This document shows positions 974 through 63,608 of a stretch of DNA of 64,000 nt, in pieces (position 1 is the stretch's first letter; every line of letters starts with the position of its first letter). Position numbers and translations under genes: made by a program. Origin of the DNA: Promethearchaeota archaeon (GTDB lineage Archaea; Asgardarchaeota; Lokiarchaeia; Sigyniarchaeales; SOKP01); assembly GCA_048938895.1 (NCBI GenBank), contig JBHLLU010000003.1:68331-132330 (forward strand), given 5' to 3'. The notes beneath the pieces are model-generated. The model was not told where the DNA came from, made no database searches, and saw only the letters and a list, made by a program, of their open reading frames with translations.

Positions 974-1936
974 ATGAAATATACTCCTGAAAAAATTTGG
1001 CAAGAATTTGAAACTAATAGTATCAGTTTACTAACTGCTACAGAATTATTAGTATCCATCATTGAAAATAGTAATGAAAGTGAGATTAGGGTAAATGCAA
1101 TAAGTACTTTAGCCAAAATTATTTCAGGAGGAGTAAAAATGTATAAAATTTTAGAGAATTTGGTTGTTTCAGAAGAAAATGTTAAAGTTAGGATGATTGC
1201 CATAAATTATGTCGGTAAAATCTTTTTGTACAGAGCTTTACCACTATTGAGTTGGGCTATTAAACATGAAAGTGATTATAATTGCCAAATTGAAATAGTA
1301 AAATTATTAGGGTCTATAAATGTGCAAGAATCCAAATTATTATTATATAGAGAGATTCAGAAATTCATTAAAAAAAGATATATAAATAAAGACAGAAAGA
1401 TTGAAAACAGAAAGTTCAAAAATGTATTAAGAATTTTACTGAAAGAAAAGGATTTTGAAGATTTCACTAATGATGAGTTAGCTAAAATTCTAATAAACAT
1501 TTTAGTTATTTCTCAGTTATTCACAGAATATAACAATATCTATTATGAATTAAATCGACAAAATGGGTTGATTGAGAAGCTAGATTTATCTGATATGGAA
1601 TATGAAGTTAAAGGAACACCATCAGGTTGGAAAAATAACATCAAATCTCTCTCTGATATCCCTGGAATTAATTTTTTACATTCATTAAGTTATCTTGATC
1701 TTTCTAATAATGAAATTATCAATATTGGAGAACTAAACTTTTTACCAAATTTAACTCATCTCATTTTAAAAAACAATAAATTAAGCAGAAAAGAAAATCT
1801 TGAATACTTTAAACATCTAGCCCATCTCGAACACTTAGATTTAAGGGGTAATGAAATAGTTAAATACGTTCATAAAAATAACTTTAATCCAAACGTCAGA
1901 ATTCTTTTAAGAGATCAAGATAAAGAGATAAAATAA
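974..1936 (+). CDS. HEAT-repeat + leucine-rich-repeat protein
   Basis: N-terminal HEAT-like units (EIRVNAISTLAKI, KVRMIAINYVGKI). C-terminal LRRs LSYLDLSNNEI, LTHLILKNNKL, LEHLDLRGNEI. Confidence 0.8.
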   Translation: MKYTPEKIWQEFETNSISLLTATELLVSIIENSNESEIRVNAISTLAKIISGGVKMYKILENLVVSEENVKVRMIAINYVGKIFLYRALPLLSWAIKHESDYNCQIEIVKLLGSINVQESKLLLYREIQKFIKKRYINKDRKIENRKFKNVLRILLKEKDFEDFTNDELAKILINILVISQLFTEYNNIYYELNRQNGLIEKLDLSDMEYEVKGTPSGWKNNIKSLSDIPGINFLHSLSYLDLSNNEIINIGELNFLPNLTHLILKNNKLSRKENLEYFKHLAHLEHLDLRGNEIVKYVHKNNFNPNVRILLRDQDKEIK

Positions 1937-52452: not shown

Positions 52453-54465
52453 TTGTCTGAGAAACAGACCACGGATGAACCAAGAATCGGAGTTTATGTA
52501 TGTAGATGAGGGGTTAATATAGGAGCTGCTGTTGATTGCGATGCTGTCAGAGATTATGTAGAAAAAAATGCTGGGAAGAATAATGTTGTTGTTTCGCGAG
52601 TTAATGATTTCACATGCTCAGATCCAGGCCAAAACATTATTAAAAACGACATACTCGACTTAAATCTAAATAGAGTAGTAGTTGCTGCTTGTACACCAAA
52701 GATCCACGAACCAACCTATAGAGCAGTTTTAGCAGAAGCAGGAATAAGTCCCTATTACTTTCAAATGGTCAATCTTCGTGAACATTGCTCTTTTGTACAT
52801 GCTAAGGACAGACAAGGCGCAACAGAAAAAGCTATAAGGCTTGTTCAGGCAGGCATTAATCGTGCTCGAGAATTGGAAACAATACCAAGAAAAGAAATTC
52901 CAGTAGAGAAAGCAGTATTAGTCGTAGGCGCAGGAATTGCTGGAATGAATGCAGCTTTAGATTTAGCAAATCAAGGAATTCCTGTCTATCTAGTGGAAAA
53001 GGAAGCAACCATTGGTGGGAAAATGGCACAATTAGATAGGATATATCCAACTGACGATTGTGGAATATGAGTTTTAGCGCCAATAATGGTAAACGCTTCA
53101 AAACATCCAAATATAAATCTTTTTACTTACAGTGATGTTGTAGAATTTAAGGGCATTCCAGGAGATTATCATGTAAAAATTAGAAAAAATGCTCGATATG
53201 TTGACCCAAAGAAATGTACTGGATGTGGTTTATGCACAACTAAATGTCCTGTTAAAGTTCCTAGCGAGTTTGACAGAGGTATTGGTGAAAGAACTGCAAT
53301 TTATATCCCATTTCCGCAAGCAGTACCAAAATTAGCTGTTATGGATAAGAGTGTGTGTATAGAATGTAAAAATTGTGAGCGCACATGTCCAGCTGAAGCA
53401 ATTGATTTCGAACAAGAGACTGAATATGTCGAAGTAAAGGTGGGGGCAGCAATTATCGCAACAGGATGGGACGAATATCCGATATGGGAATCAAATGAAT
53501 ATAATTATGGATATTATCCTGATGTGATTACCCAAATAGAACTTGAAAGAATGTTAAGCCCGATAGGGCCTACTGGAGGTCATGTTTATAGAGTATCTAA
53601 TGGTGAAACACCGAAAACGATTATAATGATTCAATGTGTAGGATCCCGAGATATCAATGCCAATCCATACTGTTCATTTGTATGTTGTAATGTAGCACTT
53701 AAGAATGCTCAATTACTAAAACAAGAATATCCTGATCTGGATGTCATTCTGTTTTATATTGATATTCGTACCACAGACAAAGGAAATGAAGAATATTACA
53801 GAAAAATAAGAGAAACGGGGATTAGAATGATTAGAGGAAAAGTCGGCGAAATTATAGAGGATAAAAAAACAAATAAGCTGAAAGTTAGAGCATTTTCGTC
53901 TTTAACTGGAGAGATTGTAAAAATTGATGCTGATTTAGTAGTTCTATCGACGGGAATGATTCCTTCGAAAGGAACCGAAGAGATTATTGAAATTATGGGA
54001 TTAAGTAAAGGTCCGGGAGGTTTTCTTTCTGAAATTCATGGGTGTTTGAGCCCACAAGAAACAAAAGATGTCGGAATATATATTGCTGGGTGTGCTTCTG
54101 GGCCAAAAAACATTCCTTACTCAGTTTCCTCAGCTCTAGCTGCGGCTAGTAAGGCATCGACACTTCTTTCTCATGATACTTATAATCAAGAATTAATCAT
54201 TGCTGAAGTAGATGAAGATTTGTGTATGGGGTGTCATAGGTGCGAGAAATTATGTTCTTACGATGCTATTAAGGTCAATGAGTACGAAATCGCTGTTGTT
54301 GATGACTTAAAATGTAAGGGTTGTGGTGTGTGTATCTCTTCATGCCCTGCAAAAGCTATTGACTTAAAATATTATCGAGAAGAGCAATTTACCCAAGAAA
54401 TAAAAGGAATCGGCTGTAGTGAAGCGGTATCAATTGAAAATATTACTGAGACCATAAAAGATTAA
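52453..54465 (+). CDS. hdrA: Heterodisulfide reductase subunit A-like selenoprotein (two in-frame UGA), 670 aa
   Basis: AGGTGA SD then TTG 52453. RIGVYVCR-UGA(52507)-GVNIG and PTDDCGI-UGA(53068)-VLAPIM both fall at conserved Cys positions. Has GAGIAG FAD motif and ferredoxin motifs. Joins track ORFs 52765 and 53086. Confidence 0.93.
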
Positions 54466-54486: not shown

Positions 54487-54915
54487 ATGACTGATAAAAA
54501 AGGTAATAGTTCAAGAAGAATTATAGCTTTTGGATGCGACAAATGAGGTTATTCTGTAGCTGATTTAACAGGGGTGACAAGAAGATCTTATTCAACAGAT
54601 TTTTACCTCATTAGAGTGAGATGTACGGGACGAATAGGAATTCACTTGATTATGGAAGCCTTATTAAATGGTGCTGACGGTGTTGCAATAATTTCTTGAA
54701 AAGTGGGGGAATGTGAATTCGGAAATGGAAATACTAACACATTTGAACATATCCTTACTTTAAAGAAATTGTTAAAGCATGAAGGCATATCTGAGCAAAG
54801 AGTTCAACAGTATTTTTGTTCAGCGGCAGAAGTTGAAAAATTTATTAACTCCGTTGAAGATATTTCCACAAAAATTCATGCCCTCCCTCCTCTACCAAAG
54901 AATATTCCGAAATAG
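54487..54915 (+). CDS. mvhD: MvhD/VhuD [2Fe-2S] subunit selenoprotein (two in-frame UGA), 142 aa
   Basis: IIAFGCDK-UGA(54544)-GYSVAD, IRVRCTGR, GADGVAIIS-UGA(54697)-KVGECEFGNGN, SAAE. Confidence 0.92.
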
Positions 54916-54916
54916 A

Positions 54917-54969
54917 ATGATCTTTTCAAAAAAATTATAGTTGAAAAGAAACTAACCCATTGCTTGGGT
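54917..54969 (+). promoter_or_regulatory. Candidate SECIS-like hairpin(s) 3' of mvhD
   Basis: ATGA, then a 9 bp stem TCTTTTCAA/TTGAAAAGA with an A-rich loop, then ACCCA/TGGGT hairpin. A canonical 3' GA core is not clearly formed. Confidence 0.4.
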
Positions 54970-58601: not shown

Positions 58602-58999
58602 TGAGTAGAAGAGATGATATGAAGTGGGCAATTGTACACATATTTTCAAGTTATAACAATACAATTGTAACTGCAACCGATTTAAGTGGTGCTGAAACTT
58701 TCGCTAAGTGTACCGCAGGGATGGTAGTAAAGGCAAGCCGGGATGAATCCTCTCCTTACGCCGCTATGCAGTGCGGTTTTCGTGTTGCTAATGACCTTCG
58801 AGATAAAGGAGTACGGGGTATTCACATAAAAGTTCGAGCTCCGGGTGGAAATAAGAGCCAAACTCCCGGACCAGGTGCTCAAGCCTGTATTCGAGCCCTG
58901 GCTCGTGCCGGCCTTCAAGTTGGTCGCATCGAAGAAGTAACCCCTAAATCGCATGACCACTGCCGGAGGAAGGGCGGTCATCGCGGTCGTCGGGTGTAG
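58601..58999 (+). CDS. rps11: Ribosomal protein uS11
   Basis: [29 protein letters not shown]. Confidence 0.97.
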
Positions 59000-59006
59000 A
59001 ATCTTT
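58944..59006 (+). repeat. Direct repeat copy 1 (3' end of rps11; attL-like)
   Basis: 57/63 nt identical to 62350..62412. Confidence 0.9.
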
Positions 59007-59037
59007 AAAGAGGATTACCAATCTATAAGAAAGTAAA

Positions 59038-62349: not shown

Positions 62350-62412
62350 CTAAATCGCATGACCATTGTAGGAGGAAGGGCGATCATCGCGGTCGTCGCG
62401 TGTAAAATCTTT
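62350..62412 (+). repeat. Direct repeat copy 2 (orphan rps11 3' end; attR-like)
   Basis: Encodes [17 protein letters not shown] with no upstream rps11 sequence. Confidence 0.9.
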
Positions 62413-62525
62413 GAAAAGTTAGCTGATTTAAAAAACTCAACGCTCTATTCCTCTAAATTTAATCCTTTTCTATTATAATATTTCTTTATTCTCAGAAGTA
62501 ATAGAGAAATATTAGTGAAGGAGTC

Positions 62526-63608
62526 TTATCTTCTATATCGGGCAATAGCAACGATACTACCAAAAGATTTAATTATTTCTCCTTGCTCTGTTTCTTTCGA
62601 GATTCTTTCTACTTGTACACCGTTCTTATATGCTAAGAACAAAAAATCATTAAAATTCTTAAATCCATCTATGATAATTAATTTCTTCACCGAATTAGTA
62701 ATTAAGGCTTTTTTAGTTTCTTTATAGCCATAGAGTGCTAACCCACTGTCTAATGATAATTCTTTCAAAAATTCCTGAACAACTTGTCTCTCTTTACTGT
62801 ATTTTAGTTGCGTCATTTGATCTGATAATCGATTAACTAATGATCTGATTCCTTCATATCCACCATCATATGGTAAGTCTATTGTATCCTGAATAATGGG
62901 TTTGAGTCTATAGTCTATATTTTTATCTTTAACTAATTTAATCTTTGAATTTCCCGCTCCTCCTACAAAGATAGCTTTCAAATTATTAAGTCGTAGAAAT
63001 TCTTGATTTATGTATCTTATTAATTTCCGATAAAATTTTACTTCTTTTTCTTGAATTAACCTTTCAAATCTCCTTTGCGAATACCCACCAGCACTATGTT
63101 TACTGGGAATACTTGATGAAAAATGCTTTATTGTATTTATTTGCTTACCTTTAAGATAACCAATAGAAGCTCTTTTTCTTCCTACTACCACTAATCCATA
63201 TGCGTTCTTATCTAATAACATATCCTCAAATGGTGTAAGCAAGAAGTGATCATCACACCAATAAATGAATGTCAATACCTTTTCAGGTGGATTTAACACA
63301 TATATTTCATTTTTTTCAGTACCTCTTTGATTTTTTTGAGGGATTGAGCCTGAAAAGATAACAAGTCCGTTTTTAGGGAGCGTTCAAATCTTAGCAAGTT
63401 GACCCGTGATGCTTAAAATACTGTTCCGAACATTATTACGGGTACGTTTGGATTTGATGTTCTGGCTCTGAGATATTTCATCCTTTAAATAATTGGAAAC
63501 ATCACTTATAGATTTTTCTGGAGGTATATAGAGTGAAATAAGTTCTGTATGGAACCCTCGCTTTTCCTTAAGCGATTCTATTATATCTTTTAAATTCTCA
63601 TCATTCAA
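62526..63608 (-). CDS. aRF1/eRF1 paralogue with one in-frame UGA (63384-63386) and GGYSQ motif; recoded gene or young pseudogene
   Basis: [14 protein letters not shown], ...[20 protein letters not shown]..., [22 protein letters not shown]. The two track ORFs are in the same frame (309 nt apart). Confidence 0.8.

Follow-up and report, generated by a model that had tools for sequence, protein, structure and literature searches.

A conserved in-frame UGA in a divergent aRF1 paralogue family of Asgard-type archaea: a candidate for programmed readthrough in a release factor gene

The bacterial gene prfB, which encodes the release factor RF2, contains an in-frame UGA at which a programmed +1 frameshift takes place with the help of a Shine-Dalgarno-like stimulator. 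Self-interruption by a stop codon counts as a classic feedback device of release factor genes, and to our knowledge its only known cases are bacterial RF2 and two giant viruses. In factors of the aRF1/eRF1 type, NIKS and YxCxxxF are the names of the N-domain motifs for stop-codon recognition. In our study, we analysed a stretch of 64,000 nucleotides from Promethearchaeota archaeon (assembly GCA_048938895.1, contig JBHLLU010000003.1, positions 68,331 to 132,330; hereafter the window), and its minus strand was found to contain a gene of the aRF1 family with a single in-frame TGA at codon 75. The gene stands beside a canonical aRF1 of the same genome and is called the paralogue here.

Mimivirus R726 and Megavirus mg280 encode an eRF1-like factor with NIKS, YxCxxxF, and GGQ, whose internal stop is read through; R726 contains one frameshift and one readthrough (excerpts of PMC3521657). 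The same excerpts summarise the frameshift device of prfB, quote the names of the two recognition motifs, and state that autoregulatory stops are absent from the archaeal and eukaryotic homologues. In plants, the autoregulation of eRF1-1 combines readthrough at the stop codon of its own gene with nonsense-mediated mRNA decay (excerpt of PMC5397192). Archaeal readthrough has been shown for selenocysteine (Sec) and pyrrolysine (Pyl) only, according to an excerpt of a 2021 review (PMC8211752). In the excerpts of PMC6514570, Asgard archaea are mentioned only for Dom34 and VLRF1, and in those of PMC9723677 the term "release factor" is used for the competitor of pyrrolysine at UAG. The terms "release factor", "aRF1", and "eRF1" were absent from the main text of PMC4989117 and PMC11227280, the supplementary tables lying outside this scope, and a full-text literature search at the level of titles and abstracts found no description of an interrupted archaeal aRF1.

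The paralogue resembles prfB in being a class-I release factor gene with a conserved early in-frame UGA that has to be bypassed, and in an output that would be tied to the efficiency of UGA termination. The two differ in fold (bacterial RF versus aRF1/eRF1, which are unrelated), and prfB shifts by +1 whereas the reading frame of the paralogue is unchanged; thus, the early conserved in-frame stop of the recoded release factor class was found in the paralogue, but its frameshift was not. Unlike prfB, the paralogue is a second copy beside an uninterrupted canonical factor, and feedback would be assigned to it by analogy. With mimivirus R726 it shares a factor of the aRF1/eRF1 type that would be translated past an internal stop by readthrough; R726 and mg280 are viral, whereas the Asgard family is cellular, contains a single in-frame UGA, and is chromosomal, next to ribosomal protein genes. 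The likeness to plant eRF1-1 is the coupling of eRF1-family expression to stop-codon readthrough. However, the stop sensed in the plant gene is the normal terminal stop, with mRNA decay as the output, whereas the stop of the paralogue interrupts the coding sequence.

The read-through product of the paralogue was found to contain the three eRF1 domains of Pfam (eRF1_1, 59.9 bits; eRF1_2, 98.4 bits; eRF1_3, 56 bits), and it scored 353.1 bits against the NCBIfam aRF1 model TIGR03676, whose cut-off is 234.7. It was aligned end to end with the aRF1 of Aeropyrum pernix (PDB 3agk; E 6.5e-57). Both stop-recognition motifs were present, QNIKSK at codons 49–54 followed by YWCDDHF (Table 1), and both were kept in the orthologues. 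The TGA at codon 75 was the sole interruption of the 360-codon frame, with zero frameshifts and an unchanged frame across it; translation confirmed the original prediction, made from the letters of the window, of a release factor gene with one in-frame UGA and no other stop or frameshift up to its end. The further description of the sequence as perfect aRF1 did not hold, as the catalytic GGQ reads GGY in the window copy and about 50 residues, inserted in the C domain of canonical Asgard aRF1, are missing. The GGY had gone unmentioned there, as had the intact canonical aRF1 elsewhere in the genome. In the family, GGQ was found in four DNA and six protein orthologues. A different sample of the same study yielded a contig across the TGA (X2 record 2, 62891–63455, depth 16), which showed no difference at the TGA and two differences elsewhere; the read error that had been considered earlier is answered by this contig. 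The TAT of the GGY was spanned by contigs of two other samples (X2 record 2 and X3 record 12), with no difference reported. The cross-sample check used contigs from four DNA runs, some of which were without cover over parts of the window; no RNA run was listed among the sequencing runs that contain the stretch. An assembly error at the TGA is excluded by the cross-sample contig, and an in-frame stop at codon 75 is well beyond chance.

The genome (4.65 Mb in 174 contigs) was found to contain a canonical uninterrupted aRF1 of 427 amino acids with GGQ on contig C39 (491 bits), followed by the paralogue with its one TGA on contig C33 (341 bits). A pelota-like gene was also found. The paralogue and the canonical aRF1 of the host were about 52% identical. 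The interrupted gene is a paralogue, and the main release factor of the cell is the other copy, on contig C39. Like canonical archaeal aRF1 (3agk and the C39 copy), the paralogue has three domains, NIKS, YxCxxxF, and a GILRY-like C-terminus, and 3agk likewise is short and has no C-domain insert. In contrast to canonical aRF1, the paralogue has the in-frame UGA and belongs to a separate long-stemmed clade, whereas GGY is a feature of the window copy only. A quick maximum-likelihood tree was built from five paralogues, 22 canonical Asgard aRF1s, and six Thermoplasmatota outgroups; the partial orthologues known as protein only were left out of it. The paralogues formed a single clade with a Shimodaira-Hasegawa-like approximate likelihood ratio (SH-aLRT) support of 100 and a long stem (0.53). 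The sampled canonical Asgard aRF1s were its sister group (99), and the clade lay within Asgard relative to the outgroup, although long branches meet there and its exact position is tentative. Co-adaptation of the canonical aRF1 of the host to the paralogue was considered and rejected; its motifs are the same as in congeners without the paralogue.

In a scan of metagenomes, four orthologous loci (L034 to L037) were found, which matched residues 1–356/360 and were 65–78% identical at the amino acid level. Codon 75 was TGA in all four and thus in five of five sequences including the window, and the context AAG ATT TGA A was invariant. A protein search with the 74-residue N-terminal piece gave 26 non-self clusters, counted at 90% identity, of which 21 stopped exactly after ...QLAKI (or ...LARI, ...LAKL). 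These 21 clusters were 65–85% identical and 19 of them were exactly 74 amino acids long; the remaining five of the 26 were contig-end or canonical-factor fragments. Four of the 21 clusters matched the four DNA loci and 17 were known as protein only. In the search with the whole protein, made against 5.8 billion protein clusters, the six closest matches (72–77% identity) were all called as C-terminal pieces of 232–250 amino acids. No full-length member of the family with a sense codon was present among the 120 best matches listed; such a member would have scored above all canonical matches. Gene callers cut every member into a piece of 74 and a piece of about 250 amino acids, and the family is therefore invisible in current annotation.

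Searches of the order (153 other species genomes) and of a phylum sample (399 others) gave no orthologue of the paralogue (E <= 1e-120), and IMG/VR viral contigs contained no relative of it. Among species-representative metagenome-assembled genomes, this shows a patchy distribution rather than an absence. Peptide patterns, which were not specific to the paralogue, gave 92 confirmed loci in the GTDB species genomes; the 80 that were listed were at most 46% identical and were set aside as canonical aRF1s. Judged from the sequences at hand, this is a family of divergent aRF1 paralogues in Asgard-type sediment archaea, with UGA predicted at codon 75 in every member.

The substitution pattern on the two sides of the TGA was examined by the ratio of non-synonymous to synonymous substitution rates (dN/dS, Nei-Gojobori). 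In all ten pairs, dN/dS was 0.18–0.32 in codons 1–74 and 0.125–0.20 in codons 76–360. Just past the TGA, in codons 76–103, the ratio of the non-synonymous to the synonymous proportion of differences (pN/pS) was 0.04–0.28 in every pair. The other two frames of codons 76–135 contained 3–9 stops. The codon changes on the branches (non-synonymous/synonymous) were 32/39 in the window copy, 13/15 in L034, and 27/30 in L035, and the window copy had 10 private changes at otherwise invariant positions, the same as L035. The window copy is without visible decay despite its TTG start and GGY. Of the 2274 open reading frames (ORFs) with 250 codons or more in the genome, 278 were terminated by TGA, and UGA is therefore not reassigned. 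Programmed recoding of the conserved UGA in this aRF1 paralogue family is well supported by these sequence comparisons.

The gene could be taken for a pseudogene that carries a recent nonsense mutation or a sequencing error, as the TTG start and the GGY of the window copy might suggest, together with the negative search for the paralogue in the other species genomes of its order. This reading is rejected, however, as the TGA occupies the same codon in four of four orthologues, of which the most distant is 65% identical, the 21 protein clusters imply it as well, dN/dS is well under 1 on both sides of it, the branch of the window copy is not relaxed, and both the TGA and the TAT are present in contigs of other samples. 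The synonymous divergence among the orthologous loci (dS 0.2–2.0) excludes that they are copies of one recent pseudogene. A recent CGA to TGA mutation, which the original prediction had held to be equally plausible, was thus not borne out; the canonical position is K, N, or R, the TGA stands in five of five DNA sequences, and the comparison of orthologues and of selection on either side, proposed with that prediction, showed a kept stop in four of four and purifying selection (0.13–0.32).

Conserved residues were encoded by identical codons at 24 of 46 positions upstream of the TGA versus 44 of 142 downstream (Fisher p = 0.013). Codons 12–17 (63556–63575, minus strand), located in a part of the gene with a higher conservation of synonymous sites than elsewhere, contained a hairpin-like CGCUU-AAGGAA-AAGCG, whose stem pairing was kept in all five orthologues. 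L034 had one change in the 5' arm (C to U, giving G-U), and L035 and L037 had changes in the loop.

A further possibility is that no readthrough takes place and that two products are made, a 74-residue N-terminal peptide and a protein of the M and C domains translated by downstream re-initiation. The two ORFs of the gene callers correspond exactly to these products, and an in-frame GTG or ATG was found at codon 104 in the window, L036, and L037. In L034 and L035, however, codons 76–129 contained no in-frame ATG, GTG, or TTG, so that codons 76–103 of these loci are reachable solely through the TGA, and yet these codons are under strong purifying selection in every pair. The N domain would also be split mid-way, so that NIKS and YxCxxxF would end up on different pieces. 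Separate translation of two pieces is therefore very unlikely.

The UGA could also encode selenocysteine, which would make the paralogue an unrecognised Asgard selenoprotein whose selenocysteine insertion sequence (SECIS) is atypical, lies within the coding sequence, or lies beyond the available sequence. The genome was found to contain Sec machinery, with tRNA-Sec and SelB on contig C51 (SelB 243 bits, above the cut-off). Contig C140 contained two tandem selD genes (L128:73–1116 and 1471–2508), each with an in-frame TGA and each followed by a selD-type SECIS (AUGA, 7-bp stem, loop of about 20 nucleotides, GA), and the canonical SECIS model was blind to both. On the plus strand of the window, HdrA (52453–54465, 670 amino acids) and a VhuD-like gene (54487–54915, 142 amino acids) contained two in-frame TGAs each, followed by a Loki-type SECIS at 54907–54961 (plus strand; 63 bits with the genome-built model). 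This arrangement matches the shared-SECIS tandem in an excerpt of PMC4989117. The host therefore appears to decode UGA as Sec, as had been predicted. In favour of Sec at codon 75 are also the identity of the stop, which was TGA in five of five sequences and never TAA or TAG, weak matches of the SECIS model 66–80 nucleotides past the TGA in three of five loci, and the variation of Asgard SECIS elements (excerpt of PMC11227280).

The SECIS model was built from eight canonical Loki-type elements of the genome, found by pattern after the description in the PMC4989117 excerpt, aligned, and turned into a covariance model; the alignment showed clear covariation in the 9-bp stem. Against the genome, the model gave 10 matches at E <= 1, with the eight training elements at 55.5–63.3 bits, followed by 45.8 and 29.9 bits. 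With the filters off, the sole real match in the 64-kb window and the four loci was the HdrA/VhuD element, on the strand opposite to the paralogue. The strand of the paralogue contained nothing above 14.5 bits in the whole window, and the same ceiling was found in the five loci. The best matches near the paralogue (14.5, 13.2, and 11.5 bits; E 1.7–6.7) lay within the coding sequence in three of five loci and were rejected as not significant, and the AUGA of the window match is ACGA in L036 and L037. Pattern scans ([A/U/G]UGA, 6–12 bp stem, 8–35 nucleotide loop with an A-rich start, GA or AA) picked up the canonical elements of the control loci as well as one selD element out of two; zero matches were obtained in L034 and L035 and none that was positionally conserved in the other loci. 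The 3' untranslated regions of the five loci were unalignable and contained no conserved element. An Rfam scan of the four loci found no SECIS or other relevant family and only the 3' end of the 23S rRNA in L037. The aligned position in the canonical aRF1 of 29 relatives was K, N, or R and never Cys. The earlier statement that codon 75 is not a Cys position and that no SECIS was seen agrees with these results.

The Asgard selenoprotein genes of the excerpts of PMC4989117 and PMC11227280 (HdrA, VhuD, VhuU, SelD, and PrxL) share with the paralogue a conserved in-frame UGA and a genome with Sec machinery. The paralogue, in contrast, is without a SECIS-like element and without Cys homologues, and its codon 75 falls in a variable loop that is not a redox site. 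The 120 best matches listed contained neither a Cys nor any other sense variant of the family, and aRF1 is not listed among the archaeal selenoprotein families in the excerpts of PMC4989117, PMC11227280, and PMC13188914. Selenocysteine at codon 75 is not supported by these comparisons, and we regard it as an unlikely reading of the UGA.

The explanation towards which we lean, with modest confidence, is a programmed SECIS-independent readthrough of the UGA, by which the synthesis of the paralogue would be tied to the efficiency of termination. Most ribosomes would probably stop at the UGA and release a 74-residue fragment, whereas some would decode it, most likely by a near-cognate tRNA without a SECIS, and complete the three-domain factor. 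The level of the full-length paralogue would then track how poorly UGA is terminated, which would make the UGA a built-in throttle or sensor. The GGY product of the window copy may bind stop codons without peptide release. A regulatory role is favoured by the presence of the stop in all known members, by TGA in five of five DNA sequences despite a dS of up to 2, by the two invariant codons before the TGA, and by a gene product that itself acts on stop codons. In an AlphaFold model, residue 75 was placed in a loop between a helix (53–71) and a strand (81–84), and according to this model it should tolerate substitution; the mean predicted local distance difference test score (pLDDT) was 70.7 with a poorly modelled N domain, and the model was used for the loop position alone. 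We infer the decoding tRNA, the efficiency of decoding, and the feedback in this explanation. As for the readthrough autoregulation of the original prediction, conservation and dN/dS bear out the programmed decoding of the UGA, whereas a termination sensor acting in feedback would be drawn from the analogy with the known devices.

Several points weigh against SECIS-independent readthrough with feedback. Ordinary TGA stops of the genome are found most often in the UGA-A context (44% of the 278), and the context of codon 75 is therefore unlike a known leaky context. RNAalifold found no convincing stimulatory structure from −13 to +155 around the TGA (−15.7 kcal/mol, covariation term +0.32). Feedback would need the paralogue, or the canonical factor that is sensed, to act on UGA, and the GGY product argues that, in this copy at least, the paralogue is unable to restore termination itself. 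The identity of the stop at the DNA level rests on five family members. About 15% of Asgard selenoprotein genes are without a recognisable eSECIS-like structure (excerpt of PMC11227280), and the 3' flanks of the short contigs span just 190–550 nucleotides, being short in L034, L035, and L037. ARAGORN, run both in intron mode and without introns, found tRNA-Sec as the only tRNA that reads UGA; the search was incomplete, since it detected just 17–24 tRNAs genome-wide and must have missed many intron-bearing ones. A "tRNA-Pyl" with an 1828-nucleotide intron, given by the intron mode on contig C124:338–4043, is almost certainly spurious. An 11-bp pairing of AUCUUUUCAGG with CCUGAAAAGGU, starting 26 nucleotides after the UGA, was rejected as a stimulator, as it is made of the conserved IFSG and PPEK codons.

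The same conserved and translated-through UGA could also act merely as a passive throttle, without feedback, which would keep the level of the factor fixed and very low because an excess of it would be harmful. The ordinary UGA-A context would suggest such a low unregulated leakage, and the GGY window copy would be unable to close a feedback loop by peptide release. We nevertheless think this improbable, as a weak promoter or start codon would be a cheaper route to low expression, the strict retention of the stop, and of TGA specifically, in the gene of a factor for stop codons is a better fit to a sensor, and the devices known so far (prfB, and mimivirus R726 in the excerpts of PMC3521657) act by feedback.

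The coordinates of the paralogue are given in Table 1.

Table 1. Positions of the aRF1 paralogue and its parts in the window
Feature	Position	Strand	Remarks
aRF1-paralogue gene, whole	62526..63608	minus	360 codons including the in-frame TGA, plus terminal TAA; translation, Pfam, TIGR03676, 3agk
Start codon TTG	63606..63608	minus	ATG in all 4 DNA orthologues
Codons before the TGA	63387..63605	minus	74-aa ORF of the gene callers; dN/dS 0.18–0.32
In-frame TGA, codon 75	63384..63386	minus	Context AAG ATT TGA A
Codons 76–360	62529..63383	minus	Remaining N domain, M domain, short C domain without insert; dN/dS 0.125–0.20
YWCDDHF motif, codons 116–122	63243–63263	minus	Within the N domain
GGY (GGT GGG TAT) replacing GGQ	63081..63089	minus	TAT at 63081–63083; GGQ in every orthologue and in canonical aRF1
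Terminal TAA	62526–62528	minus	End of frame

The neighbours of the paralogue were chromosomal and comprised rps13, rps4, rps11, a Ddl-like ATP-grasp gene, an Alr-like gene, and a gene of a DUF5698/DUF2179 membrane protein, with the end of the contig 390 nucleotides upstream of the paralogue. In three congeners (L138/G002, L139/G004, and L140/G003), the Ddl-like, Alr-like, DUF5698, and aRF1-paralogue genes all lacked a homologue in the 4.5–11 kb after rps13-rps4-rps11; the end of the contig (59013–64000 in the window) is therefore a variable island. A 69-nucleotide duplicate of the 3' end of rps11, 88% identical to its source (58944–59012, plus strand), was found at 62350–62418 (plus strand) between the paralogue and the DUF5698 gene, and the two copies flank a 3.3-kb block that contains the Ddl-like ATP-grasp, Alr-like, and DUF5698/DUF2179 genes. 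These repeats look like the att-type repeats of an insertion; no integrase was seen. A depth peak at 62354–62407 in the metagenome contigs is caused by this rps11 duplicate. In L036, the paralogue adjoins a gene of a Ras-family GTPase, and in L037 the 3' end of the 23S rRNA (1382–1468, minus strand) was found about 250 nucleotides downstream of the paralogue. Closeness to an rRNA operon may be one reason for the presence of the family on short, unbinned contigs.

A conserved in-frame UGA in a cellular gene of the aRF1 family would be a third, independent case of release-factor self-interruption, in a host group, the Asgard-type archaea, that is regarded as the nearest to eukaryotes. Among archaea, it would also be the first candidate for programmed stop-codon readthrough by a route other than selenocysteine or pyrrolysine. 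A more far-reaching proposal, to which we would give only a small chance, is a UGA-sensing circuit that arose from a duplicated release factor in some Asgard archaea with UGA as both stop and Sec codon, in which the paralogue, made solely upon readthrough of its UGA, would tune the balance of termination and recoding at UGA and the GGY form would be a release-dead anti-terminator favouring Sec insertion or readthrough. If true, such a circuit would be a cellular archaeal precedent for prfB-like feedback and a natural "eRF1-AAQ-like" competitor. The gene would offer a short and concrete context for the choice of the archaeal ribosome at UGA between termination, near-cognate decoding, and Sec.

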